Origin: an uncultured bacterium
GTDB taxonomy: Bacteria; Patescibacteriota; Minisyncoccia; UBA6257; 2-01-FULL-56-20
Reading direction: 5' to 3'
Length of the DNA stretch: 64,000 bases
Assembly (NCBI GenBank): GCA_963707865.1
Contig: OY970175.1
Location: 630,028 to 694,027 of the forward strand
Position 1 is the stretch's first letter. The number at the start of each line of letters is the position of its first letter. The position numbers were made by a program, and so were the translations under genes. Below are positions 2,801 to 22,941 of this stretch, one piece after another. Under the pieces are notes generated by a model that was given only the letters and a program-made list of their open reading frames with translations, did not search any database and was not told the DNA's origin.

Positions 2801-4468
2801 TCACAATTGAAATTCTTCTTGAAACTTTTTTACAAGATTGCGATCCTCTTCAGGATAGATTTTTTGGGATCCCCACGCGGTGATTTTCTCCGCGAGGAAG
2901 TTTTTGAGAGTCTCGTTGGACCTCATGGCTGATTTTCGGTATTCCTGAAGCCAAGAAATGATGAGACCCGGATCAAGCACGGCATGACGAAGATAAGAAG
3001 CATCACGCAGGGTTGTAGTGAGTGCATTCTCTTCGCCTTTGTAGCTTTTCTGGATAGCCGCGACGAATTCGGCAAACCGCCAGAGCGTTCCTCCCGCTTT
3101 GGGATCGGTGTCAATCTCGGGATGCTTGCTATTGGTTCGCGCATCCACTACTTCTTTCCATTGCGGAGGCAACTCGTCCTTCGGTACGCGAATTCGATCG
3201 TTCTGGTCCATAAGCGCCGCGAGCATCATTTCATAAAGCTCGGGATCTTCCGGGGATTGCGGCGGATAATCTACCTCAAGCGAGCCGAGTTCCCGCGCCA
3301 CCTCGACCGGAAGCTCGGAGCGATCCGGATGTTTTTCCGAAGGAAGGTTGGCTGAGCCAATAAAACCGAATTCGGGAGCAAGTTTTTCTGAACTGCCTGC
3401 CCAAGCTGCAAAGCTGATTTCCTCTCCCGCGCGGCGGCCGGAAAGTTGCTTGATTAAAGAACGCAAGCCTTCCGGAGGGTAGCCGTTCATTTCGTCCATA
3501 TAGAATATTCCGCCAGCTCCGGCTTTCGCATCCCGCGAGGTCTTTTTCCCGGTCACCGCTTGACCGAGCGGCCCGTAGGTGACGAATGTTTCTCTGTCCT
3601 TATCTATACTTCGCAAACCTAAAAGCGGTCGGATGTCAGTTTTCGCTTCTTCGCCTACTTCATAAGGCGCACGTTCGGTAAGCCGTTGCGAAGCAGCACG
3701 AGCGAGACGAGTTTTTCCGGTTCCAGTTTCTCCATAAAGGAGGAGTGGCCGATTCTGATTCACGATCACAAGGTGCTCGAGAATTTTCTGGAATAATTTT
3801 TCTCTTGATGGAGTCCAAATAAAGCCGCCCTTCTTAAGCTGCTCCCGATATGTCTTCAAGCGTTCAAAAGAAAGCCGCGCTGAGAGTTCCGGATCTTCGC
3901 GCTCCATCCGTTGCATCGAGCCATCGGTTGCTTTCACGCGAGCCGCGAGATCGGCAAGCTCGAGCAGAGTAAGTTCATCGGATTCTTTTTCCCGATGGGA
4001 AAAAATATCTGAATAGAGTTCGAGACGACGCTCGTCCGCTCCGTCCCTCTGAGCTTTTTCCCGGAGATAATTCTCGTACGAAGGGGCAAGTTTTTCCTCT
4101 TCTGCAAATTCACGTTCCAAGGTTTTCTCAAAGATTCCACGCACGTTGGTATCTTTGAAGCGAGGGCGTATGGCGGTGCGGAGCGGAGCGAGTTTTGTGT
4201 CGACTGCAACCGTCGCTCGGATACGCCGGGCACGATCCGCTGGTGATTCCTGATCGTTCTTGGGCTCGGCTCTTTTATCTCGATATTCTTTGGCAAGCTC
4301 GTCTCTCTTGCGCTGATAGTCGCGCCAAAGCGCATAGAGCTCCTCAGATCCCTGTTCGGGAGAATTCCATGTCTCGGCAAAAGAAACGACGCCTTCTTTT
4401 TGCGGAGCCTTTTCCGAAGCTTGTTCCAGCTTATTCTCTATTTCCTCGAATTTGGGGCTCTCCTTCAT
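2801..4468 (-). CDS. AAA+ ATPase (AAA_5 / MoxR-McrB-like), with a charged coiled-coil N-terminal region.
   Basis: Walker A motif [12 protein letters not shown] and Walker B-like motif [10 protein letters not shown]. 555 aa, immediately upstream of and co-oriented with the two DGR-target paralogs. Confidence 0.6.
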
Positions 4469-4995: not shown

Positions 4996-6339
4996 TTGAT
5001 GACAAACCTAACCAAGGGGTCGGCAGGAGCGGCGACCTCAACCAATCAGCCGCTGCCAGTAAAGGTCGCCTACTGTCTGTATGCAAGAAAGAGTACAGAA
5101 TCAGAGGAAAAACAAATTCTTTCGATTGATAGCCAAATCACGGAGATGATCAGGATTGCCGAGCGAGACGGATTGGAGATCGCGGAGATCAGGAAGGAAT
5201 CCCACTCCGCGAAAGATGTCGGCCAACGCGAAGTGTTTAACTCGCTCCTCACAGACATTCGCGCGGGTAAATTCAACGGCATCCTCACGTGGGCACCGGA
5301 TCGCTTGAGCCGCAATGCGGGCGATCTCGGATCGCTCGTCGATCTCATGGATCAGAAGCAGCTCGTCGAGATACGAACCTTCTCGCAAAAGTTCACTAAC
5401 AATCCAAGCGAGAAATTCATGCTCATGATCCTGTGCTCGACGGCGAAACTCGAGAACGACAATAAATCGGAAAACGTGAGACGGGGCCTGCGGGCGCGGG
5501 TGGAAATGGGCCTCTGGCCAGGCATCGCGCCTACGGGATATCTGAACGAAAAACGGAAGGATAAGAAATGCGAACTCCTGGTAGATCCCGTGCGAGGTCC
5601 CATCATCCGTCAAATGTTTGAGAAGGTGGCGAATGAGCAATGGTCGGGACGCAGGCTCTATCTATGGCTCAAAAACGAGGTAAAGTTCAAGACGATCACC
5701 GGAAAACCCCTCTCGTTATCGAATATCTTCATCGTCCTCCAAAAAACCTTCTACTACGGAACGTTTGAATTCCCCGAAAAGTCGGGCAAATGGTACACCG
5801 GCGTCCATACGCCCCTCGTCACAAAAGAACTATTTGATCGAGCGCGGGAGCAGATGAAGCGGAGCGAGGTCAAAAACGACAAGGAATTCGCCTTCACAAA
5901 GCTCATCACGTGCGGCCTTTGCGGATCAGGAATCACTGCATCTGAAAAATGGAAATATCAAAAGAACGGCAATACCCATCGGTATGTGTACTATGGATGC
6001 ACGAAGAAGCGTGACGTAAATTGCCAATGCGGATATATCAAAGAAGAAGAAATTATCGACCAGATTCTCGCGATGTTCGACACGCTCGATATCAACGAGC
6101 TGGGTGTCAAGCAGAAATTCAAGGACGAAATCGCGCGGTACAACAAATTCAGGAGAGTCGCCTTGGGCAAGGGCCGAGAACAGAACGCCGAACCGGAAAT
6201 CTTCGATGCCAAGGTCTATGCGGTCTACGTCTTAACCGAAGGCACGATTATCGAAAAACGCGAGCTGTTATCAAACCTGAGGAGCCGCTTGAAATTCCAG
6301 AACAAGACGCTCGCCTTAATGCCGCAGGAAACGGCATAA
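4996..6339 (+). CDS. Large serine recombinase (resolvase/integrase family).
   Basis: N-terminal resolvase motif YARKSTESEEKQ…SIDSQ with a catalytic Ser, a recombinase domain, and a Cys-rich zinc ribbon (CGLCGS…YYGCTKK…CQCGY). Its 3' end faces the tRNA-Val 3' end. Confidence 0.85.
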   Translation: MMTNLTKGSAGAATSTNQPLPVKVAYCLYARKSTESEEKQILSIDSQITEMIRIAERDGLEIAEIRKESHSAKDVGQREVFNSLLTDIRAGKFNGILTWAPDRLSRNAGDLGSLVDLMDQKQLVEIRTFSQKFTNNPSEKFMLMILCSTAKLENDNKSENVRRGLRARVEMGLWPGIAPTGYLNEKRKDKKCELLVDPVRGPIIRQMFEKVANEQWSGRRLYLWLKNEVKFKTITGKPLSLSNIFIVLQKTFYYGTFEFPEKSGKWYTGVHTPLVTKELFDRAREQMKRSEVKNDKEFAFTKLITCGLCGSGITASEKWKYQKNGNTHRYVYYGCTKKRDVNCQCGYIKEEEIIDQILAMFDTLDINELGVKQKFKDEIARYNKFRRVALGKGREQNAEPEIFDAKVYAVYVLTEGTIIEKRELLSNLRSRLKFQNKTLALMPQETA

Positions 6340-6356: not shown

Positions 6357-6392
6357 ACAAAACACCGCCGCAAATTTGCGGCGGTGTTTTGT
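6357..6392. terminator. Rho-independent terminator hairpin (bidirectional) between the recombinase and tRNA-Val.
   Basis: aaaacaccgccgcaaatttgcggcggtgtttt forms a perfect 14-bp stem followed by a T-run. Confidence 0.5.
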
Positions 6393-6533
6393 ATACAGCA
6401 TGATCGTGCAACGACTCAAGGGATCTGACTCGCCCGCGAACGGTAAAGAGGTTTCAGTGTACTAGAGGGTCATCCCTCAAGGACGCGCTGGAACCTCAGG
6501 AATCACGGTCTCAAAACACCTATCACTGGACTG

Positions 6534-6605
6534 TGCGTCCTGGAGGGATCGGACCTCCGGCCTCTACAGTGTCATTGTAGCGCTCTACCACTGAGCTAAG
6601 GACGC
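6534..6605 (-). tRNA. tRNA-Val (anticodon GAC).
   Basis: Manual cloverleaf: acceptor GCGTCCT/AGGACGC, D-arm GCTC-AGTGGTA-GAGC, anticodon loop ATGACAC, T-arm GGAGG-TCCGATC-CCTCC. CCA is not encoded. Confidence 0.65.
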
Positions 6606-6852: not shown

Positions 6853-7382
6853 GATCCTCTGGAAAATGCTCGGCCCTGCGCGGTGAGGAGGTACGCCGTT
6901 CCACTGCTCGTAAAGTCAAAGGAATCGATCGCAATGATGAATCCGGACGCTTCCGCCTCAAGATCATTGAGAAACGCGACGAGATCGCTCGGGGCTCCGG
7001 TCGCGACCAGGGAAAAATCATCGCTGCCGGGAGTGGAGGTGGTGGCCGCGGTCCCCCCTCCCTTGAACGCGAACGAAACCGAAACATTGTGCGCCTGCCC
7101 GAGAGTATTGAGCGCCTGCGGGAGCCCCACAAGCTTATCATACGTCGGCAAAATTGATTTCAAGACGGGTGTGTAAGGAGCCGCTTGTGCCGCTTCGCTT
7201 TTGAGGCTCGCCAGAATGCCGACTGCCGTATTTTCCTCCGCGATGCGGGTCCGATCGGAAACGATCTTATCCGTCTGCGCCGCAATGTCGTTGGAAAAAA
7301 AGTAAATGGCAATGGACGCTACCGCAATGGCCGCCGCGATGATTCCGATGCTTATTTGCAATTGCCGCTTGAGATTCCTCAT
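6849..7382 (-). CDS. Membrane-anchored hypothetical protein (possibly a PilO-like pilus or competence assembly component).
   Basis: N-terminal transmembrane helix followed by a coiled-coil-like region. It is adjacent to dprA. Confidence 0.3.
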   Translation of the reverse strand: MRNLKRQLQISIGIIAAAIAVASIAIYFFSNDIAAQTDKIVSDRTRIAEENTAVGILASLKSEAAQAAPYTPVLKSILPTYDKLVGLPQALNTLGQAHNVSVSFAFKGGGTAATTSTPGSDDFSLVATGAPSDLVAFLNDLEAEASGFIIAIDSFDFTSSGTAYLLTAQGRAFSRGS

Positions 7383-7459
7383 TGCACCGCTTCATTCTAC
7401 CATTAAAAAATTGTGAACGCACACTTTACTTTTGGAACGTTTTCCGCAACGCTTCTCTG

Positions 7460-8494
7460 ATGGATGAGGAAGCATACTACTATTATAATGCGGTCGCCGT
7501 GGGCACGGGCGGCGATTATCGGAAAATCGCGCAGTTAAAAAAGAAATATGGCGACTGGAAACGCGCGCACGAAGCACTCGAGCATTTCGGCATCCCTCCG
7601 CCCGATGCCGAGACGGAATGGAAAAACCTTGCGCGCGCGGGCGTCGCCCTCATACTTTTTGAACATGAAGAATATCCTGCACCGCTCCGGGAAATAAATG
7701 ATCATCCCTTCGGCATTTACCTGCGCGGCGCACTCCCGCCGCAGAACGTGCCGCTTTTCGCGATTGTGGGCACCCGGCGTGCCACGCCTGAAGGAAAAAA
7801 CATCGCCCGGTGTTTCGCGCGGGAGCTCACGCAATGCGGGTTCGGCATCGTAAGCGGCCTCGCGTTCGGTATCGATGCCGCAGCACACGAAGGATGTCTT
7901 GATGCCCGGGGTGTGACGATCGCGGTGCTTGCCGGAGGGTTGCATGCCGTGTATCCCCGAGAGCATGCGCGCCTTGCGGAAAAAATCCTTCAAAGCGGCG
8001 GCGTACTCGTCTCCGAATACCCGCTCGGCGCGCCTCCGTACGCAGACCGCTTTCTGGAACGGAACAGGATTGTGAGCGGCCTTTCGCGCGGCGTTTTGAT
8101 CGTAGAAGCGCCACAGGGATCGGGCGCACTCGTGACCGCACACCTCGCTCTTGAACAAAATCGGGACGTATTCGTCGTACCCGGTTCCATCGTCCATCCG
8201 AACTTCGCGGGCTCCCACGCACTCATCCGTCAAGGGGCAACGCTCACGACCACTCCCCACGAAATCATGGAAAGCTATGGCATCTCTCCCGCGGAGAAGA
8301 TTGCCGTGCAAGAAAAAACGGCGTCACTCGAAGAAAGACTGATTTTAAAGGCCTTGCGGGAAGCTTCCGTACCTCTTGCGGTTGACAAAATCACGGCAAT
8401 CACTAAGCTGGAACCCCAAATCGCAAACCGGACGCTTTCGTTCCTTTTGCTAAAAAATCTCATCAAAGAACGGAGTGAAGGGTATACAATATAA
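7460..8494 (+). CDS. dprA: DNA processing protein DprA (Smf).
   Basis: Rossmann-like DprA core (AIVGTRRATPEG…GIVSGLAFGIDAAAH…VVPG) and a C-terminal winged-helix domain. Confidence 0.85.
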   Translation: MDEEAYYYYNAVAVGTGGDYRKIAQLKKKYGDWKRAHEALEHFGIPPPDAETEWKNLARAGVALILFEHEEYPAPLREINDHPFGIYLRGALPPQNVPLFAIVGTRRATPEGKNIARCFARELTQCGFGIVSGLAFGIDAAAHEGCLDARGVTIAVLAGGLHAVYPREHARLAEKILQSGGVLVSEYPLGAPPYADRFLERNRIVSGLSRGVLIVEAPQGSGALVTAHLALEQNRDVFVVPGSIVHPNFAGSHALIRQGATLTTTPHEIMESYGISPAEKIAVQEKTASLEERLILKALREASVPLAVDKITAITKLEPQIANRTLSFLLLKNLIKERSEGYTI

Positions 8495-13974: not shown

Positions 13975-14793
13975 TCAAATATTGAAATTCCCAAAATTTT
14001 CGCTCGCGACGACCTCTCGCGGCAGGTTGTAGTCCCTTTCCTGCATGATAATCTCATCCGCGAGCCGCCTATACGCCACAGCGCCCGGTGAGTCGGGCCG
14101 ATACAAAATAATCGGCTTTGAAAAACTCGGCGCCTCCGCGAGCGCGACCGCGCGCGGGATCTCCACAGCAAACACGTGATACGGAAAATGCCGCCGGAGG
14201 TTTTTTGAAACCTCACGGCTCAAATGTTCACGCTTGTCGTACATCGTGACGAGCGCGCCCGCGACGCGGAGCGGATGTTTCAAATTATTCTTGATGAGCT
14301 CCACGGTCTCCAATAGCTGTCCAATACCTTCCAAGCTGTAATATTCCGTCTGCACCGGGATCAAAATTTCGTCTGCAGCGATCAAACCGTTCACCGTGAG
14401 CAAACTCAAGCTCGGCGGGAGATCGATCAAAACGTAATCGTAATTATGGCGCAGGCGGTTCACAAACTTCCGCAAAAAATATTCTCGCTCGGAAACATCC
14501 ACGAGCTCTACGAGCGCTCCCGCAAGATGCGGCGCCGCAGGAACAAAATGATAGTTAAAAATAATGGTCGGCTTCACAATCTGCTCGTACGGCACGATTC
14601 CCAAAATGCCGTGATAGACGCTCAGCTCCTCTTTTATATTGTGGCCCAATGCCGAACTCGCGTTCGCCTGCGGGTCAAAGTCAACCAGGAGTACCCGCCG
14701 CCCCGCGGCCGCAAGATACGCGCCCAAATTAACCGCGGTCGTGGTCTTCCCCACGCCTCCCTTCTGATTGCAAATCGCGATTACGCGCGCCAT
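13975..14793 (-). CDS. parA: Chromosome partitioning ATPase ParA/Soj.
   Basis: Deviant Walker A motif KGGVGKTT; ParA family. Confidence 0.9.
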   Translation of the reverse strand: MARVIAICNQKGGVGKTTTAVNLGAYLAAAGRRVLLVDFDPQANASSALGHNIKEELSVYHGILGIVPYEQIVKPTIIFNYHFVPAAPHLAGALVELVDVSEREYFLRKFVNRLRHNYDYVLIDLPPSLSLLTVNGLIAADEILIPVQTEYYSLEGIGQLLETVELIKNNLKHPLRVAGALVTMYDKREHLSREVSKNLRRHFPYHVFAVEIPRAVALAEAPSFSKPIILYRPDSPGAVAYRRLADEIIMQERDYNLPREVVASENFGNFNI

Positions 14794-14860
14794 ATAACCT
14801 TGATTTTAGCGTGTAAAATAACTATTATCAATTGGCGCAGATCATAGCGAGCCCGGGTGG

Positions 14861-14946
14861 CGGAATGGCAGACGCAATCGCCTCAAGAGCGATCGGCCGC
14901 AAGGCCATGCGAGTTCGACTCTCGCCTCGGGCACCAAGATATTACG
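14861..14946 (+). tRNA. tRNA-Leu (anticodon CAA).
   Basis: Manual fold: anticodon loop CTCAAGA, a long variable arm, and an encoded CCA. Confidence 0.8.
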
Positions 14947-14990
14947 AACCGCAAGAACAAACTCGAGAGACAAAATCGGAAAGACTGCCA

Positions 14991-15857
14991 TTAATGGCGC
15001 TCCTCTTCCTCCGTTCCCACGGATTCCGCCTTGCTCTTTTTACCGTAAAATCCTTTCTCTTCGGGCGGCAACATCCGCGCGATATCCGCGCCGATCATAT
15101 CCGCAACCTTATGCAGTTCGTATACCGTCTCGCTAAATTTTCTTTTTTCGTCCGAGGTGACCATTTCTCCGCACTTCCTTTTCCGCATGATACTTTCTAC
15201 AAAACCCGCGTCAACGCGCGGAACTTCCAGCGGGACCCCTATCCTGACTGTTGCGGATAATTTATCCTTAAAAGCTTTCAAGATTTCTCCAGCGCCTTCC
15301 ATACTTGCTCCAGACCCTTCCAATACAATAGCGACGGGGATTACAAGCGCATTGAGTTTTTCTGCCAAATACGCAGAGCCGACATTCGCACGCGACATTT
15401 CGCGATCCTTTTTTAGATTATGCGCTGTAATCCACGGCACCTTATTTTCACTTTCGGTCACCTTTTGAATAGTTGTGAAATCGTCGGGGTTGAACATAGC
15501 GCCTTCATTGCGACGGCGGTAGGAAATCGGAGAAAATGATTCCTTGCCTACGGCAGACATCATAAAATTCCTTACATCAGTAATATCGAAATGCGTGGAC
15601 ATAGCCGCCAGTTGCAGGTTCATGCCGTCGCCGAACGTATCAATGATGAGCGGGCCATCGAGATTGGAGAAATGAGAACTGACGATTACCACGCGCCGGT
15701 CCGGCGGAATTTCGGTGAGATGTTCTCTGCCTTCTACTTTCTTTTCTTTAATAAAACTCTGAAGAAGTTTTTCGGCTGTTTTTTTAAGGCGTGCTGGCGT
15801 TTCGCCCGCATGGAGATTCAACTGCTCGACTTGGGGGGATGGTCCTTCAAGAGACAT
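14991..15857 (-). CDS. Lysophospholipid / 1-acyl-sn-glycerol-3-phosphate acyltransferase family protein.
   Basis: HX4D acyltransferase motif (SSHFSNLDG). Confidence 0.55.
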   Translation of the reverse strand: MSLEGPSPQVEQLNLHAGETPARLKKTAEKLLQSFIKEKKVEGREHLTEIPPDRRVVIVSSHFSNLDGPLIIDTFGDGMNLQLAAMSTHFDITDVRNFMMSAVGKESFSPISYRRRNEGAMFNPDDFTTIQKVTESENKVPWITAHNLKKDREMSRANVGSAYLAEKLNALVIPVAIVLEGSGASMEGAGEILKAFKDKLSATVRIGVPLEVPRVDAGFVESIMRKRKCGEMVTSDEKRKFSETVYELHKVADMIGADIARMLPPEEKGFYGKKSKAESVGTEEEERH

Positions 15858-15891
15858 TTAATCAAACTATAACAAACTTTGTGAGAAACAA

Positions 15892-16309
15892 TGTGGCTCT
15901 GTACCAGTCCGCTCGACTGTATTTTGAGAGTCTACCATAGCCGTTTTACCCCTACATTCCGAAGCTGTTTACCCCTTCAATTACCCCTTCAATTGGGTAT
16001 GCTCAATTTGAAGGGGTAGCGGGCGCGGATTGCCCCGTGTTGCTTGGTCTTTTTGACCAACCGACCCGAAAATCCAAAGTCCTACTTCACTCCGGTTTGC
16101 CTAGTCAATCACCCCGTCAATCACAGTTGACTACCCTGACGGCCATCTGGCCGTTGCAGAGCTTAGCTTTTCTTGAAAACCCCGACCCCCGACAATACCC
16201 CCGATTGGGTATGTTCAGCCCCCTCCGACACTCGCGCTACATTGGCCACAATGTTGCTCGTGTCTTCGGGGGCTTCACCTCGTCCGGTGGTGCCAAAATT
16301 TCTCCCCCA
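15892..16309. repeat. Left arm of a perfect 418-bp inverted-repeat pair (IR-A).
   Basis: Reverse complement of 19261..19678 by direct comparison. It contains internal short repeats (taccccttcaatt x2 and their inverse), and only spurious ORFs overlap it. Confidence 0.8.
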
Positions 16310-16440
16310 ACCCCTCCTTTTGGCACGCCGCCGGAGGCGGAAGGTCAGCGGTTTCTTGCCCTTGCCCCAGCCCTCCCATTGCGCGGGCAAGAGGCGACTA
16401 TAGCTCCCCAAAACTTCTTAAAAAGTTGTAGAATTATCTC

Positions 16441-17295
16441 ATGGCACGCAGACGCAGAGACGACGAAGAAGGTTCTATTTGGGGATTCATAGGTGGAGTC
16501 GTTTTGCTCTATCTCCTCTATATCGCCTTTCTCTATAACACCAACCGCGCCGCATACTGGCAACAGGTTTGGTATTTTGCGGCGTTCGTCATTGTCGTTT
16601 GCGCGGCAATCATCGCGTGGCAGATACTCATTCGTCGCTGGCGTGAAAAGCGACTGAACGACCTTCTTACGGCGGCAAAGCAGAACGGTCTAGAGGAATA
16701 CGTCAAGAACTTCATTGACCGTTTCGGTATGCAAAAGGGGAAGAAGACCGATTGGACGTTTCGCGGCCACTACTTCGACTGGCAACGACTAGAAGATTTT
16801 AGGAAGATATTGAACGAGAAAGGGATGCGTCTCTCCGCAGACAAATGGGATGCCACCCTTATCATCCTCAAACACTACATCCAAGAGAAAGAAGAACGTT
16901 TGACCCGCGAAAGCGTGAGCGTCCTGCCTCAAAAATTCTCCACGCTTTCCGGCTCCGATTTTGAGAATCTTTTGTACCGCCTGTTCACGGCCATGGGCTA
17001 CGCCGTCCAGAAAACGGGCAAGACCGGAGACCAAGGGGGTGATTTGGTTGCAAACATGAATGGGCAGAGAATTGTCATCCAAGCCAAGTGCTATTCAAAC
17101 ACAGTCGGCAACGCCGCCGTCCAAGAAGCCGTGGCCGCGCAGAAATTCTACGACTGCAACAAGGTTATGGTCGTTACAAACTCCAGCTTTACCAAGGAAG
17201 CCATCGAGTTGGCTAAGGCGAACAACGTCGAGCTTATCGGCGGTGGGAAATTAAGCGAATTGTTACTCCAAAACCTTAAAGAAAATTGGGGTTAA
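16441..17295 (+). CDS. Membrane-anchored Mrr-like (Mrr_cat) restriction endonuclease domain protein.
   Basis: N-terminal transmembrane helices. The C-terminal domain (FENLLYRLFTAMGYAV…GDQGGDLVA…IVIQAKCY…VTNSSFTKEA) matches the Mrr N-terminal catalytic (PD-(D/E)xK) fold. The gene is lower in GC than its surroundings. Confidence 0.6.
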   Translation: MARRRRDDEEGSIWGFIGGVVLLYLLYIAFLYNTNRAAYWQQVWYFAAFVIVVCAAIIAWQILIRRWREKRLNDLLTAAKQNGLEEYVKNFIDRFGMQKGKKTDWTFRGHYFDWQRLEDFRKILNEKGMRLSADKWDATLIILKHYIQEKEERLTRESVSVLPQKFSTLSGSDFENLLYRLFTAMGYAVQKTGKTGDQGGDLVANMNGQRIVIQAKCYSNTVGNAAVQEAVAAQKFYDCNKVMVVTNSSFTKEAIELAKANNVELIGGGKLSELLLQNLKENWG

Positions 17296-17299
17296 AATA

Positions 17300-19204
17300 T
17301 TGATTATGAATCAGCGCATAAAAAATTTATTGAGAGATAATATGAGATGGTTTGTGATAGCTCTCGCGGCATTATTAATCGTATGCGGGCTTTCGATTTA
17401 TTTCTTTTATTCAAACGAATCAACCAAATCGGTCGCGGCCAGAACCCCTCAAGAACTTTTAATTGAAAACGTTGGGCTTGCCGAGTTCAACCCGCAAAAC
17501 GATGCAACTGCCACTGTTGTGTCGTCCCAAGAGAAAACGATGGGTCAAGCGGTGATAACTGCCGGACAGCTTGCCGGAGATGGTACTGATAAAGCAAAAG
17601 TTCAACAAGCCATAGATGCGTTGGGCGGGATTATAAAACAATATCCTGATTTCTCGGCCGTTTATATGCAAAGGGCGATGGATTTATTACTCCTAGGAAG
17701 TACGGATTACCAGAGCATCACACAAGATGTTGATAATGCCATCAAGTTTTGTGGCAAGGGTAAATACAACATAGAGTCGATTGGCTGCGACTCGACTGCA
17801 CCAATGTATGCACTAAGAGCGAAGGTGGACGTACTTTCCGGTAACTACCAACAGGCGATAAATGATTTAGAAACAGCCGTCGATATAGACCCGAGCAATT
17901 TGGGAGATGTCTTCAACACTGGAGGAGTCAAGCCTAGCGACACCTCAAATCCGACGGCACTACAGGAGGCGGACTTCAACGCTATGGTCGCCCAATATCC
18001 AAACGATTACCGTTCTTATCTTTTCCGGGGGCTATTTTGGAATGAATTTTCTTTTTATGACAATTCATATTACGCTCCTGCCGTCAAAGACGTGAAAGAA
18101 GCTATAAGCCTAAACCCGAATTCGTGGGTGGCGAATTATATTCTTGGAAGCATCTATCAAAAAGGGGCGACGTGGATTTACTCATGGAAACTCAGCGGCG
18201 GAACTGCGGCTTACGATAGTGCTCGCGCTACGGTGAACCAATCTGCCGTGCAATATTTCAATATAGCCATACAACTGAATCCTAGCTCCACTATTGCATA
18301 CAGCGACGCGGCGGAAGCTCTTTCGGAATTAAACCAATATCCGCAAGCTATAGCCGATTATAATAAAGTTACGGAACTAGACCCCACTAATTTCGGGGCG
18401 TTCAATGATAAGGCGCTGGCGGAAGAATCCACTAGTTCAAATAGCGACTATTATAGTGCGATAGATGATTTTTCCGAAGCAATCAATTTACAATTAGCGA
18501 CTTCCTCTCATAAGTATTTGGAAGGAAGCTATCAAAGCCGCGGAGATGCCTACGTTCACCTCAACGAATACGCTAACGCCATCGCCGATTATAGTAATGC
18601 CATAGGCCTCACTATTGCCAACGATGCTATATTGATGCCAGTCTCCCAGTTTAGGGCTATATATCCGGAGTTTAGCAGTGTATCAGATGCAAACTTAGTC
18701 GAAGGGTTGCGCCAAAAATATGACCCGAATATCAGCCCTACAGACTTTGCAGCTCAGATAGCAAAAATTAGCCAACCCTTTGAGGACTCAATTTTGGCTG
18801 GCCTTTATTCTAGTCGTGGGGATGCGTATTGGAGTGAAAATAATTTCAAGAAGGCCGTGGCGGAATATACTAGGGTTGCTGGTGCCGATTCTACTTACGA
18901 CCTTAACAGATGGAAGATGTTTTCTAGCAACCTCAATACTACTAGCTACTTAGATACGCAAACGTTAGATGTCTCTACGAGTACGGTGTCCTTGTGGGTC
19001 AGGACGATTAATAACAATACCTCGAACTACAACGAGCAGAATTATCAGATTGATTGCGCTGGGAAAAGGATACAGTCCCTTACGTCCGTGAGTTACGATG
19101 CTTATGGCAATGAATTGAATACTCTTGGACAACAGGGTTGGGAGAGCGTTATTCCTCAAAGCATGGGGGAGGTTCTCTATAACGGAGTTTGCTCGTCTCA
19201 GTAA
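17300..19204 (+). CDS. Membrane-anchored tetratricopeptide (TPR) repeat protein.
   Basis: N-terminal transmembrane helix. The rest consists of repeated TPR-like motifs (AI..Y..AI.L.P.). It is AT-rich relative to the flanks. Confidence 0.55.
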   Translation: MIMNQRIKNLLRDNMRWFVIALAALLIVCGLSIYFFYSNESTKSVAARTPQELLIENVGLAEFNPQNDATATVVSSQEKTMGQAVITAGQLAGDGTDKAKVQQAIDALGGIIKQYPDFSAVYMQRAMDLLLLGSTDYQSITQDVDNAIKFCGKGKYNIESIGCDSTAPMYALRAKVDVLSGNYQQAINDLETAVDIDPSNLGDVFNTGGVKPSDTSNPTALQEADFNAMVAQYPNDYRSYLFRGLFWNEFSFYDNSYYAPAVKDVKEAISLNPNSWVANYILGSIYQKGATWIYSWKLSGGTAAYDSARATVNQSAVQYFNIAIQLNPSSTIAYSDAAEALSELNQYPQAIADYNKVTELDPTNFGAFNDKALAEESTSSNSDYYSAIDDFSEAINLQLATSSHKYLEGSYQSRGDAYVHLNEYANAIADYSNAIGLTIANDAILMPVSQFRAIYPEFSSVSDANLVEGLRQKYDPNISPTDFAAQIAKISQPFEDSILAGLYSSRGDAYWSENNFKKAVAEYTRVAGADSTYDLNRWKMFSSNLNTTSYLDTQTLDVSTSTVSLWVRTINNNTSNYNEQNYQIDCAGKRIQSLTSVSYDAYGNELNTLGQQGWESVIPQSMGEVLYNGVCSSQ

Positions 19205-19260
19205 TTATTATTTTGCACGTCGAAAAAATTCACGGCCATGCGGCCGTGAGCTATTTTTTG

Positions 19261-19678
19261 TGGGGGAGAAATTTTGGCACCACCGGACGAGGTGAAGCCC
19301 CCGAAGACACGAGCAACATTGTGGCCAATGTAGCGCGAGTGTCGGAGGGGGCTGAACATACCCAATCGGGGGTATTGTCGGGGGTCGGGGTTTTCAAGAA
19401 AAGCTAAGCTCTGCAACGGCCAGATGGCCGTCAGGGTAGTCAACTGTGATTGACGGGGTGATTGACTAGGCAAACCGGAGTGAAGTAGGACTTTGGATTT
19501 TCGGGTCGGTTGGTCAAAAAGACCAAGCAACACGGGGCAATCCGCGCCCGCTACCCCTTCAAATTGAGCATACCCAATTGAAGGGGTAATTGAAGGGGTA
19601 AACAGCTTCGGAATGTAGGGGTAAAACGGCTATGGTAGACTCTCAAAATACAGTCGAGCGGACTGGTACAGAGCCACA
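19261..19678. repeat. Right arm of the 418-bp inverted-repeat pair (IR-A').
   Basis: Perfect inverted copy of 15892..16309. It abuts IR-B with a 4-bp overlap. Confidence 0.8.
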
Positions 19679-19832
19679 AGAGTAGAGACTAAATCCTTAT
19701 TATAAAAATTCAGCCGCGCTTCGCGGAGCGAAGCGTATGGTGTGGTGGGGGTAAATTCGATACGACGATTTTTGAGAAGTATGTTCGAGCCGAAGATTTT
19801 TTGGGCGGACGATTTTTGGAGGGGTAAGGAAG
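19675..19832. repeat. Left arm of a second inverted-repeat pair (IR-B, about 158 bp).
   Basis: Reverse complement of 22520..22676. It starts with cacaag, which corresponds to the tRNA-Leu 3' junction sequence. Confidence 0.75.
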
Positions 19833-19835
19833 TCG

Positions 19836-20291
19836 TTATTTTTGAGGATGAGAAGAATCCCAGATTTTTAATATCTCTACATCGGCAGGAATATCATAGT
19901 CCGGTGCGAACTCATTGATTTTTTGAATCCGGCGCGTAGCTCTCTGCTTGCTAGCGTACTCAACATTTCTTTTACAAACATCAGGTTTTTTCTCGAAGCA
20001 CTGTATTTTTATTTCGACGCTAGGCACCGCTTTTTTGATTATGCTGATAAATTGTTCGCGTCTTTCTTTTGCACACCAAGCTATATCAGCAACAGCGCAG
20101 TTCTTCCCACTTTTTAATTTGGCGATTAGCTCGTCGTAGTGCAAACTATCTTCGACTTCGTCCGATGGAGCGTCAGCATGATAGTCGTGATAGACGCAAT
20201 CGCTGGCAATTTCACCCGATTTAATGAGTTCTTTAAGACGAAATGATTTCCCCGAGCCGGGCAAACCGATGATAACATTTAGTTTTGCCAT
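19836..20291 (-). CDS. P-loop NTPase / kinase-like protein (AAA_33 or zeta-toxin-like fold).
   Basis: Walker A motif GLPGSGKS near the N-terminus; 151 aa. It is the last gene of the XRE-hypothetical-kinase operon. Confidence 0.5.
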   Translation of the reverse strand: MAKLNVIIGLPGSGKSFRLKELIKSGEIASDCVYHDYHADAPSDEVEDSLHYDELIAKLKSGKNCAVADIAWCAKERREQFISIIKKAVPSVEIKIQCFEKKPDVCKRNVEYASKQRATRRIQKINEFAPDYDIPADVEILKIWDSSHPQK

Positions 20292-20307
20292 GTTTTTTAA
20301 TTAACTT

Positions 20308-20904
20308 TTAAGCACCATCCTCTAAAGAGCGGTCATCTAACACAAAGTTGATTTTGTCGCTCCTCTTGATAATAACCTCTAAATCTAAGTCGTCGTTACT
20401 AACTCTAATCACGGGGGTAATGCACTTGAAGCTAAAAATAATTTCATCCCCATCTTTAATAATTAATTGAATGTCTCTTATGACTTCGTAAAGACTAGCT
20501 CTGAAATTTTCCCAATCGAACTTGCCATCATATCCAATCTCTGGAAAAAAGTTAATAATATCTTCCTTTAAGCGGAGGAGTCCATAGTCGCGGAAACAAT
20601 CCCGTATTTTATTGGTCATTGCATCTAACCAATCGAGATGGCCTAATGCGTTTGGTTTGTTCGCTTCCGCCTTAATTAACGCATCGACATCTTTGAATAC
20701 TTTATAGGAAGCTCCGTGGAGGTACGAGTGGCAGACCCAATCTCTGTAAAATTTTATTTGATTGTATTTACCATCGCCGAATTGTTTATCGTATTTCCGT
20801 TCCAAAAATTTGTATGACTCTACAAAGAAATAGACCACGTCTCGTTCAGAATAAGTCTTCTGGCATATAACGTCTTTTATCTTCGTTTCTATGTCGCGTG
20901 TCAT
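20308..20904 (-). CDS. Hypothetical protein (partner of the P-loop kinase-like gene).
   Basis: 198-aa ORF, AT-rich, with no recognisable motif. It is spaced tightly from its neighbours. Confidence 0.4.
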   Translation of the reverse strand: MTRDIETKIKDVICQKTYSERDVVYFFVESYKFLERKYDKQFGDGKYNQIKFYRDWVCHSYLHGASYKVFKDVDALIKAEANKPNALGHLDWLDAMTNKIRDCFRDYGLLRLKEDIINFFPEIGYDGKFDWENFRASLYEVIRDIQLIIKDGDEIIFSFKCITPVIRVSNDDLDLEVIIKRSDKINFVLDDRSLEDGA

Positions 20905-20911
20905 GTTTTAA

Positions 20912-21118
20912 TCAGCTTAATAATCTGTTTATAGGCACAGCTAAGGCCTTTGCGATTTTCTCAATTCCTCCTATAGATATATTCCGCACGCCGCGCTCGA
21001 CACTACTTATGTAAGCAGGGTGAACGCCCAAAATCTTGGCGAGGTCGCCCTGCGACAGCTTCTTTTTGAGGCGCACCTCTTTAACTTTTTTGCCAAACCT
21101 TGCTGATATGTCGGTCAT
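20912..21118 (-). CDS. XRE-family HTH transcriptional regulator (Cro/CI-like).
   Basis: HTH motif LSQGDLAKILGVHPAYISSVERG. It is divergently oriented to the recombinase. Confidence 0.75.
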   Translation of the reverse strand: MTDISARFGKKVKEVRLKKKLSQGDLAKILGVHPAYISSVERGVRNISIGGIEKIAKALAVPINRLLS

Positions 21119-21192
21119 ATTTAGAGCTTGCGTTAATTCTACCGCCCATTATATGATTGTTCTATATAAAACAATTGTTTTATACTATCCTT

Positions 21193-22941
21193 ATGACCTC
21201 ATATTTCCTCTACGCCCGAAAATCCACCGATGTCGAAGATAAGCAGGTGCGCTCCATCGAAGACCAGCTCGCCGTCTTGCGTGCCTTGGCTAAGCAGGAG
21301 AACCTTCATATTTCCGAAGTGTTTGTGGAGAAACAATCGGCGAAGCGTCCGGGTCGTCCCGTGTTCGGCGAGATGGTTCGGCGTATCAACGAGGGAGAAG
21401 CGCAGGGCATCCTCTGTTGGAAGCTCGACAGGTTAGCCCGCAATCCGGTGGACGCGGCGCAGATAAGCTGGATGTTGCAGGAGGGCATCATCGAACACAT
21501 ACGGACGAACGACCGCGACTACCAGCCAAGCGACAACACGCTCCTTATGAATATGGAGTTCGGGATGGCGAACCAATATATTCTCGACTTGAGCGCGAAT
21601 ACGAAACGCGGCCTCCATGAGAAAGCGAAGCGGGGAGAGTATCCGAGCGTTGCCCCATTGGGCTATCAGAATGACTCGCGCACAAAGCAGATTGTCGTGG
21701 ATAGAAAAGAGTCGGTTATCGTCCGCGAAGCCTTTGAGCTGTATTCCCGCAATCAGTCCCGCCTTGAGGACATTTCAAAGTTCCTTTTCGATAAGGGCAT
21801 CCGCACCAAAGCTAACAACCGATGGATGAGCGAAGGCGGCAGGACGTGGAAACGCGACCAGATTACGGCGTTCCTATCGAACCCCTTTTATTGCGGCTTG
21901 TTCCGCTACGCCGGAGAGATTTTTGAAGGCAAATATACACCTATCATTTCCAAGCAACTGTTCGATAAAGTCCAAGCCGTCTTGAAGGAGCGGAGCAAGC
22001 CGCAGGTGAGAACCAAAGAACCGAAACCATTGTGCGGTTTGTTCCGTTGCGGCGAGTGCGGCCGGATGATTACGGCCGAAGTGCAGAAAGACCACACCTA
22101 TTATCGTTGCAGTAAGAAAGGGGTCGTCTGTTCCCAGCCCTATATCAGAGAGGAAGTTTTAGCAGTTCAACTATCCGATATACTAAAAGATTTCGCCGCG
22201 CCTTCGGATTGGGCGGTAGAACTTTCAAGAATGGCTGATGCCGACGAAGCGAACGCCATGCAATCCTCAATCGCGGCGAGCCAAGCCGTCAGAGAGGAGA
22301 TGCGGGTCATATCCCAAAAACTCCAGCGACTCCATCGGCTCTATTTGGACGAAGATATAGAGCGCGAGACCTATCTCGCGGAGAAGGAAGACCTCCTCTC
22401 CCGCCGGAAGTCGCTGGAAGGGAAACTCACCGGACTGGGCAATGGGTATCTGGCTTGGCTCGAACAGATGCGAGAGTGGATAAAAGACACATCATTACTT
22501 GGTGAAACTAGCGTTTCATCTTCCTTACCCCTCCAAAAATCGTCCGCCCAAAAAATCTTCGGCTCGAACATACTTCTCAAAAATCGTCGTATCGAATTTA
22601 CCCCCACCACACCATACGCTTCGCTCCGCGAAGCGCGGCTGAATTTTTATAATAAGGATTTAGTCTCTACTCTTGTGCCCGGGGTCGGAGTCGAACCGAC
22701 ACGTCCTTGCGGACAGCTGAGTTTAAGTCAGCTCTGTCTACCGGTTTCAGCACCCGGGCAAATCGGGTTGGAGGCCACGGCGGGAATCGCACCCGCGTAT
22801 AGCGGTTTTGCAGACCGCTGCGTTAGCTACTTCGCCACGTGGCCGTGCCTCAATCTTACTTTTTTAAGAGCGCTTTTTCAACCGCCGCAGCGTTCTCCAC
22901 GCCATGATCAAGGGATATCGATATCCGCGGCATCGGTTTGA
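21193..22941 (+). CDS. Large serine recombinase. The ORF reads through IR-B' and two tRNA genes without a stop, so the true C-terminus is uncertain.
   Basis: YARKSTDVEDKQ…SIEDQ resolvase domain, recombinase domain, Zn ribbon (CGLFRCGECGRM…YYRCSKKGVVC) and a coiled coil. The ORF starts at 21157 and ends at 22941. Confidence 0.8.
   Translation: MTSYFLYARKSTDVEDKQVRSIEDQLAVLRALAKQENLHISEVFVEKQSAKRPGRPVFGEMVRRINEGEAQGILCWKLDRLARNPVDAAQISWMLQEGIIEHIRTNDRDYQPSDNTLLMNMEFGMANQYILDLSANTKRGLHEKAKRGEYPSVAPLGYQNDSRTKQIVVDRKESVIVREAFELYSRNQSRLEDISKFLFDKGIRTKANNRWMSEGGRTWKRDQITAFLSNPFYCGLFRYAGEIFEGKYTPIISKQLFDKVQAVLKERSKPQVRTKEPKPLCGLFRCGECGRMITAEVQKDHTYYRCSKKGVVCSQPYIREEVLAVQLSDILKDFAAPSDWAVELSRMADADEANAMQSSIAASQAVREEMRVISQKLQRLHRLYLDEDIERETYLAEKEDLLSRRKSLEGKLTGLGNGYLAWLEQMREWIKDTSLLGETSVSSSLPLQKSSAQKIFGSNILLKNRRIEFTPTTPYASLREARLNFYNKDLVSTLVPGVGVEPTRPCGQLSLSQLCLPVSAPGQIGLEATAGIAPAYSGFADRCVSYFATWPCLNLTFLRALFQPPQRSPRHDQGISISAASV
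22520..22676. repeat. Right arm of IR-B. It overlaps the recombinase 3' end and terminates at the tRNA-Leu(TAA) 3' end.
   Basis: Inverted copy of 19675..19832. Confidence 0.75.
22675..22759 (-). tRNA. tRNA-Leu (anticodon TAA).
   Basis: Manual fold: acceptor GCCCGGG, anticodon loop CTTAAAC, long variable arm, T-arm GTCGG-TTCGACT-CCGAC. Confidence 0.75.
22769..22844 (-). tRNA. tRNA-Cys (anticodon GCA).
   Basis: Manual fold: acceptor GGCCACG, anticodon loop CTGCAAA, encoded CCA. Confidence 0.75.

Follow-up and report, generated by a model that had tools for sequence, protein, structure and literature searches.

We analyzed a stretch of 64,000 nt (the window) from contig OY970175.1 of an uncultured bacterium of the Patescibacteriota (assembly GCA_963707865.1, positions 630,028 to 694,027 of the forward strand). 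Positions 15892 to 22677 of this window are a small integrative element that is moved by a large serine recombinase (LSR; the enzyme is called Int and its gene int below) and that has inserted at the gene for tRNA-Leu(TAA). The GC content is 37-45% within the element, as compared to 50-58% in its flanks. The explanation that we favor on balance is that of an LSR element at a tRNA 3' end, with the attachment site attP located within int and with a second, inverted attP as a spare that may serve to re-arm a parked integrated state.

Two pairs of inverted repeats (IR) were found in the element. The arms of the first pair, IR-A (15892-16309 and 19261-19678), are 418 nt long and were 100% complementary in a repeat search and in a direct string comparison. 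The arms of the second pair, IR-B (19675-19832 and 22520-22677), are 158 nt long and also 100% complementary. An earlier annotation made from the sequence alone (the original prediction) had described this pair correctly, except that the right arm ends at 22677 and not at 22676; it reaches 3 nt into the 3' end of tRNA-Leu(TAA) (22675-22759, minus strand). The 4-bp overlap described there is also present: the inner arms of the two pairs have CACA (19675-19678) in common. Identity breaks off abruptly at all four outer boundaries in the string comparison, and a perfect 158-nt inverted repeat cannot be a chance occurrence in 64 kb. The predicted layout of IR-A, cargo 1, IR-A' and IR-B, cargo 2 with the recombinase, IR-B', and tRNA is thus the one observed.

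The geometry of the central block was overlooked in the original prediction. The 572 nt of A' and B (19261-19832) are the exact reverse complement of 22520-22677 joined to 15896-16309, that is, of B' followed by A. Since this join is the product that excision would create, the central block is an internal, inverted, and complete copy of attP; the IR-A and IR-B pairs both exist because of this one inner copy. The junction attL reads ...GAGAAACAA-TGTG-GCTCTGTACC, the junction attR reads ...CTCTACTCT-TGTG-CCCGGGGTC, and the inner site reads ...CTCTACTCT-TGTG-GCTCTGTACC in inverted orientation. The only sequence common to attL (at 15892) and attR (at 22677) is the core TGTG. Recombining the two on paper gives a consistent attP and a consistent attB, and the reconstructed attP is present intact in the window as the inner copy. 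The att-like sites that had been suspected are therefore real, whereas the preference for some structure other than a simple att-flanked island is not upheld: the element is an att-flanked island with an internal inverted attP in addition. The features are listed in Table 1.

Table 1. Features of the integrated element and of the adjoining tRNA genes (window coordinates).
Feature	Position	Strand	Remarks
Whole integrated element	15892..22677		6786 bp; attL/attR-bounded, core TGTG at both junctions; junction reconstruction
IR-A left arm (A), P' side of attP at attL	15892..16309	+	
Last 14 integrase codons and stop	15896-15940		within A
Hairpin with T-run	15905-15919		within A
T-loop-like TCGACT	15913-15918		within A
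Triple-repeat module	about 15967-16019		within A
Cargo arc C1	16310..19260	+	
Mrr-type restriction endonuclease	16441-17295	+	in C1; Pfam, PADLOC
TPR / Adhesin_E-like protein	17300-19204	+	in C1; Pfam, PADLOC
Terminator hairpin	19229-19250		in C1; terminator scan
Inner inverted attP copy	19261..19832	-	A' 19261-19678, B 19675-19832, core CACA 19675-19678
Native integrase C-terminal 66 codons	19630-19832	-	in inner copy; SLPLQ...LVALYQSARLYFESLP, stop
Integrase arc C2	19833..22519		
AAA_33 kinase-like gene	19836-20291	-	in C2
Hypothetical gene	20308-20904	-	in C2
XRE/HTH "control protein"	20912-21118	-	in C2
Large serine recombinase open reading frame as it stands	21193..22941	+	582 amino acids, residues 1-495 native
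IR-B right arm (B'), P arm of attP at attR	22520..22677	+	last 52 native integrase codons
Distal GGCTCGAAC motif	22561-22569		in B'; mirror 19783-19791
Hairpin with 8-bp stem	22617-22635		in B'
tRNA-Leu(TAA), integration target	22675..22759	-	ARAGORN, Rfam; crossover at discriminator/3' end
T-loop antisense TCGAAC	22691-22696		in tRNA-Leu(TAA); 14 nt past core
tRNA-Cys(GCA), bystander read through by the fused frame	22769..22844	-	ARAGORN, Rfam

The Pfam domains of the recombinase are Resolvase (PF00239), Recombinase (PF07508), and Zn_ribbon_recom (PF13408), and its nearest matches in the PDB, both distant, are the SPbeta (SprA) and A118 integrases. The enzyme is a large serine integrase and not an invertase; its recombinase domains are of the serine type only, with no tyrosine recombinase fold. 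As had been predicted, the frame that starts with the ATG at 21193 includes the right arm (52 codons) as well as tRNA-Leu and tRNA-Cys and is closed only at 22941; the native stop is absent at the tRNA junction. In its attP form, the open reading frame (ORF) stops 14 codons past the core (...DLVSTLV-ALYQSARLYFESLP, stop). Because attP lies inside the 3' end of int, integration swaps these last 14 codons for antisense tRNA, which explains the missing stop. Where ORFs for Int in these genomes appear to continue across a tRNA gene, they are true junction products and not annotation errors. At 22856-22941, the fused ORF extends into the 3' end of rbfA, which is encoded on the other strand, and gene callers may mis-annotate this region.

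The search for an intact C-terminus elsewhere, proposed in the original prediction, was successful: the inner copy has the native end (minus strand, 19630-19832), as do homologues, among them P0013, P0014, and P0023. The integrase has 4571 matches of about 500-520 amino acids, and the named ones are from Patescibacteria (Candidate Phyla Radiation). Following a conserved "...LV", a peptide encoded by antisense tRNA (G[VIFL]EP..., RIEL, and similar) forms the C-terminus in 82 of the 120 best homologues, and 14-15 of these 120 have the conserved terminal tail xLYxxARTYFxxN that matches the inner copy in the window. Proteins with the intact tail are encoded only on contigs of at most 7.6 kb; the fused form is found on contigs of up to 900 kb. 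The exact fused ORF and the 198-amino-acid gene have no record in the assembly index. An origin of the integrase from a phage or plasmid was considered and rejected: its relatives in IMG/VR, INPHARED, and PLSDB are all at most 35% identical, and no phage or plasmid integrase exceeds 32% identity or matches over the C-terminal extension.

The core is short in other loci as well. In the window and nine other loci, the cores comprise 3-6 nt (TGTG, GTG, GTGA, TGGTGA, GGTG, and others) and are the antisense of the discriminator/CCA end of the tRNA. In 21 of the 22 scorable loci, TCGAAC starts at +14 from the core in the tRNA (attB) and at +18 in the P' arm of attP. The motif of the zinc ribbon is thus shifted by 4 bp toward the center in attB, a shift that is clear on the P'/B' side only. 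Rutherford et al. reported that the zinc-ribbon-domain motif is 5 bp closer to the center in attB than in attP (PMC3783163); our offsets fit this rule for serine integrases. The "ART" of the conserved tail is encoded by GCT CGA ACC with the synonymous positions conserved; the tail is therefore kept mainly as a DNA site, which makes the inner copy a preserved, complete attP.

Close relatives of the element sit in different tRNA genes (Leu-TAA, Leu-CAA, Val, and Tyr). Loci L061 and L075 are located in tRNA-Leu(TAG) and tRNA-Gly(CCC), respectively; their att regions (A and B) are 97-99% identical, and the bodies of their int genes about 85%. This suggests an exchange or stronger conservation of the att module, together with relaxed target choice. 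Given these differing targets, targeting appears to depend on generic features of the tRNA end.

Additional motifs are present in the arms. The distal GGCTCGAAC motif of IR-B encodes an invariant FGSN and is the same as the T-loop mimic of P'; this second motif is also carried by L009, L011, L019, L031, L037, L038, L042, L047, L048, L053, L064, L065, L070, and L081. In one clade, a conserved T-rich insertion of 9-11 nt (TTTGAATTTT-like) is located exactly at this motif in the inner copy only; in other clades, the boundary of the repeat coincides with the motif. The module of IR-A at about 15967-16019 (mirror at about 19551-19603) consists of two direct 9-mers and an inverted one, e.g., ACCCCTTCA..ACCCCTTCA..TGAAGGGGT, and is followed by a conserved AAAGTCCTACTTCACTCCG block. 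The same module, sometimes in tandem, is found in L002, L004, L013, L019, L022, L026, and L210. The 9-mer varies among elements (CCCCTTCA / CCCCATCA / CCTAGTCA), the pattern is retained, and there is no Rfam match. The module could be an array of protein-binding sites or a structured element. Rfam recognized no RNA other than tRNAs between positions 14500 and 23500 of the window.

The architecture recurs. Close relatives with an 88-92% identical Int carry the same double repeat: the repeats are 397 and 152 nt long in L002, at tRNA-Leu(CAA), and 392 and 156 nt long in L004, at tRNA-Val(TAC); in L003, at tRNA-Tyr, the repeat is cut by the contig end. We also examined 80 loci from species-representative genomes, in which Int is 47-94% identical to that of the window. 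A convergent tRNA gene was found at the 3' end of int in 51 of these 80 loci, representing 21 isoacceptors, and 15 more loci end at a contig edge. Repeats of the IR-B type with at least 90% identity are present in 40 loci, and a more sensitive search added 12 loci with 82-90% identity; among the integrated loci with 4 kb or more of upstream sequence, only four are devoid of the repeat. The abutting IR-A (150-420 nt) is also present in 12 loci, including the window, and the inner copy retains the conserved tail and the P' site in 37. Identity between arms is 92-100% within an element, as compared to 63-92% between elements; the arms therefore evolve in concert. In many loci, the arm pairs are 90-99% identical and contain indels.

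The orientation of the integrase arc is invariant: int lies beside the tRNA in about 50 related integrated loci, which include probable long-read assemblies and one complete chromosome (OY970382). This arc always includes int, and in many elements it contains int alone. In such minimal elements, the inner core is located 180-400 nt upstream of int. The cargo arcs of the relatives encode SET and GH43; an SDH protease; DUF2207, LemA, and RDD; an M23 peptidase; Shedu and Type ISP; or a diversity-generating retroelement (DGR). The orientation of the cargo relative to int differs between clades and is consistent within them. Loci without a detectable left arm can hold large cargo: in L011 (83-7640), it is a defense cluster of more than 8 kb with a Shedu SduA-like gene, a Type ISP restriction-modification enzyme, and an SNF2 helicase. 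The cargo of L086 (1133-4175) is a DGR with reverse transcriptase, bAvd, and target protein, whose template and variable repeats are 178 nt long and 91% identical (2387-2564 and 3278-3455). On the complete chromosome OY970382, L025 (3984-4306, 7260-7800, and 11351-11491) has an IR-B with 99% identity. Its left arm is rearranged and lacks the core-proximal part of P', and ARAGORN no longer recognizes the "tRNA" next to it; L025 is probably an older, immobilized, and decaying element.

The family to which these elements belong is large and apparently undescribed in Patescibacteria. In the literature, we found no description of tRNA-targeting serine integrases with an internal inverted attP, and a large survey of LSRs (PMC10083194) nowhere mentions tRNA. 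With thousands of members, the family is seemingly a main vehicle for defense and accessory genes (Mrr, Shedu, Type ISP, and DGR) in Patescibacteria, whose mobile elements are poorly known.

The observed arrangement can be read as follows. The site attP is located within the family-specific C-terminal extension of int, and attB, on the other strand, is the extreme 3' end of the tRNA gene. When the element integrated into tRNA-Leu(TAA), attP was divided: the P arm, with the last 52 native codons, remained with int at attR as IR-B', and the P' arm, with the last 14 codons, the stop, and the downstream DNA, came to lie at attL as IR-A, so that the int frame now continues into antisense tRNA. Excision through attL x attR would yield a 6.8-kb circle, which we infer from the geometry, in which two inverted 572-bp repeats, each with an attP, separate the cargo arc from the integrase arc. 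Intramolecular gene conversion presumably keeps the two attP copies alike.

What the spare copy does is the more tentative part of this explanation. It may serve to re-arm an element that is parked in the integrated state. The state observed in the window would be the parked one: the Int frame continues into antisense tRNA, its own terminator is gone, and convergent transcription of the tRNA opposes it. A rare recombination over the 158-bp arms, homologous or mediated by Int, would invert the integrase arc; this would reunite int with the native end and the terminator of the inner copy, and the element would be armed again. On paper, inversion of C2 indeed exchanges the 3' end of int between the tRNA-fused and the native form. 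Four observations support this idea: the invertible arc always contains int and often nothing else; no conserved gene for a recombination directionality factor (RDF) was found, and the cargo is diverse; the intact tail and the fused form differ in the lengths of the contigs that carry them, as described above; and in L210 the integrase arc lies between two full attP copies. It is doubtful, and a further step, that the arrangement is a built-in switch of a widespread family in Patescibacteria, in which inversion would rebuild the native integrase and thereby permit excision without a directionality factor. Among the relatives, no accessory gene is conserved as an RDF candidate, and the minimal elements consist of int and variable cargo; since RDFs are diverse, the failure to find a candidate is not proof of absence.

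Several results weigh against the parked-and-re-armed element. No integrated copy with a reversed int was found among the about 50 loci, so inversion is rare, transient, or does not occur; with int adjoining the tRNA in every integrated copy, free flip-flop recombination is excluded. The short contigs with intact tails are ambiguous and could reflect ambiguity of the assembly graph through the repeat. A metagenome scan for an empty attB with the 3' 25-mer of the tRNA returned unrelated tRNAs only, and look-ups of exact proteins encoded by the flanking genes led only to the same sample. The intact-tail contigs L085, L086, L087, L209, L210, and L023 have no terminal overlap that would indicate a circular form; the 288-nt terminal inverted repeats of L210, whose integrase arc has a full attP on either side, are compatible with a circle but ambiguous. 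Given its conservation at the DNA level, the tail may not matter as protein, and the tRNA-fused Int may be fully active. The differences between arms comprise 33 synonymous and 40 nonsynonymous changes, a ratio compatible with coding constraint on the inner copy as well as with its absence. Finally, inversion alone does not account for the extent of IR-A (150-420 nt). In L209 (ERZ4902915 NODE_8040), positions 1-70 are Illumina adapter (AGATCGGAAGAGCACACGTCTGAACTCCAGTCAC...), i.e., the left end is contaminated, and the right end lies inside the T-arm of a tRNA.

The alternative that survives best, though we consider it rather unlikely, retains the circle with two attP copies and assigns no switching role to the spare. 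The spare attP would be a second usable site or a passenger that gene conversion keeps identical, as happens in other replicons with inverted repeats, and the state with int next to the tRNA would dominate through Int acting in cis on the attP in its own 3' end, or as a stable sink. The geometry is exactly that expected from excision, the Int-binding motif of the inner site is kept at the DNA level, the integrase arc of L210 is bounded by two full copies of attP, and the absence of flipped integrated copies is what would be expected. However, equal use of both sites should leave int intact and remote from the tRNA in about half of the integrated copies, and none is of this kind. This alternative also gives no reason for the near-universal retention of the spare over a divergence of Int down to 47% identity, and neither a replication gene nor a circular contig was found.

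It is improbable that the inner attP is a cis-acting site with a regulatory or architectural role. Int bound to it would autoregulate nearby promoters, or the site would provide free coiled-coil motifs that unlock attL and attR in place of an RDF. The lack of a conserved RDF candidate, the existence of minimal elements with int as their only gene, the position of the inner core shortly upstream of int in these elements, and the extra conserved motifs of the arms (the distal GGCTCGAAC, the clade-specific insertion of 9-11 nt in the inner copy, and the triple-repeat modules of A) are in line with such a function. But this is inference only; about 50 bp would suffice for an operator or helper site, as compared to the 300-570 bp of near-identity, and we know of no precedent among serine integrases.

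The original prediction had proposed a two-segment invertible or shufflon-like structure, in which inversion would change the genes beside the tRNA and terminator. An active system of this kind, with frequent inversion of cargo 1 and cargo 2, is very improbable. Two abutting pairs of perfect inverted repeats do bracket two gene sets, one of which contains the recombinase, and cargo orientation relative to int does vary between clades; however, it is constant within clades, and a single orientation with int beside the tRNA was found in the about 50 related loci. Furthermore, inverting C1 would not move different genes next to the tRNA, because both flanks of C1 are the same sequence and no junction is altered. 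A set of short crossover sites and alternative gene ends are both absent, and the enzyme is an integrase-type LSR with attP/attB logic.

We give even less credence to a folded single strand as the substrate of integration, by analogy to the attP of CTX phage or the attC of integrons. Following transfer as single-stranded DNA, for example through natural transformation, the inner copy would pair with both ends and form a double-stranded attP. Pairing of the inner copy with its complements at the two termini would align these exactly, the arms co-evolve, and the host encodes DprA. However, serine recombinases cut all four strands, and recombination between the stem of such a dumbbell and attB would, on paper, linearize the chromosome, unlike the observed product. 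The arms also accept 5-10% mismatches and indels, and no gene for single-strand replication is present. The successive insertion of two modules with terminal inverted repeats was also considered and is disfavored, given that the inner site is always a complete attP with P and P', even when no left arm is in reach.

Both repeat pairs of the window are 100% identical, and several related short-read contigs break at these repeats; many stop at Int residue 432-460 or begin about 50 nt before B, and these breaks are repeat-induced. From the run ERR10755942, the unitigs L001 (window 16368-19290) and L168 (window 14906-15921) show 100% identity with the window and reach exactly 30 nt into A' and A, respectively, which is how a k=31 graph should behave at the edge of a true repeat. 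An assembly artefact, through chimeric joins or wrong threading of the repeat graph, which the original prediction had named as a possible refutation, thus has almost no chance of being the explanation, given that independent unitigs reproduce the L/A and C1/A' junctions, that the architecture recurs in assemblies made independently from different samples with different pipelines, one of them the complete chromosome OY970382, and that the arms in many loci are 90-99% and not 100% identical, with indels that no assembler would invent.

Outside the element, tRNA-Leu(CAA) (14851-14936, plus strand) and tRNA-Leu(TAA) (22675-22759, minus strand) point toward the island region from either side. A 38-nt "inverted repeat" with 76% identity between the two is merely the common 3' sequence of tRNAs; the left end of the island is 955 bp from tRNA-Leu(CAA), past an acyltransferase-like gene. 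The window also encodes DprA (7382-8494, plus strand), which is consistent with a naturally transformable host and is relevant to the spread of elements without transfer genes. A second LSR (4996-6339, plus strand), 31% identical to Int, is convergent on tRNA-Val(GAC) (6533-6605, minus strand). The gene ends with a stop of its own 194 nt before the tRNA and has a terminator hairpin at about 6362-6390; there are no inverted repeats within 10 kb of it. This locus may be an island of a different family or a decayed island.

In comparison with shufflons and the invertases Hin, Gin, and Pin, the element shares inverted repeats that bracket DNA beside a serine-recombinase gene. These systems use small serine or Rci-type enzymes and short sites, and both orientations coexist, whereas the element has a large integrase, its repeats are duplicates of the att region, and a single orientation was seen, with none of the about 50 integrated relatives flipped. 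In layout only, the excised circle predicted from the geometry resembles plasmids of the yeast 2-micron type: it would be about 6-7 kb long, and two inverted repeats of about 0.6 kb, each with the target of the recombinase, would lie between two unique arcs. The FLP protein of these plasmids is a tyrosine recombinase; no replication origin or gene was identified in the element, and serine integrases are not expected to recombine attP with attP. Islands of the Islander type, mobilized by tyrosine integrases, are similar: they are small, carry cargo or defense genes, sit at the 3' ends of tRNA genes, and have their integrase at the edge. They regenerate the 3' part of the tRNA as a direct repeat of tens of nucleotides, whereas in the element the crossover is at the discriminator/CCA end, the core is 3-6 nt long, and the long repeats are inverted and internal.

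The element is a member of the LSR integrative elements. With A118/LI, SPbeta SprA, phiC31, Bxb1, and TnpX, it shares a three-domain enzyme, short attP and attB sites, and a small identical core, and the zinc-ribbon motif is nearer the center in attB than in attP, by 5 bp in the known systems (PMC3783163) and by 4 bp in the element. Unlike known LSRs, it targets a generic tRNA 3' end (21 isoacceptors), its attP lies inside the int frame, it carries an inverted second attP, and it has no evident RDF gene. For the biology of serine integrases, this means a generic tRNA 3' end as a target recognized through a T-loop mimic, an attP written in the integrase's own frame, and a near-universal inverted spare attP that stays the same as the working copy. 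Directionality would be controlled in a new manner if excision were governed by the spare site or if the spare site re-armed the integrase.

The SSV-type "suicidal" tyrosine integrases of archaea also have attP inside the integrase ORF and target tRNA genes, and their integration alters the integrase gene (PMC7253208). The element shares these three properties, with the crossover located 14 codons before the native stop, as well as hints of a mosaic evolution of att (L061 and L075: attP 97-99%, int body about 85%). It differs in its serine enzyme, in that only the last 14 codons are swapped where the SSV-type gene is split in two, and in retaining the 3' end as an inverted spare, for which the SSV type offers no counterpart. 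If the proposed switch exists, it would be the serine-recombinase answer to the problem of the suicidal integrase.

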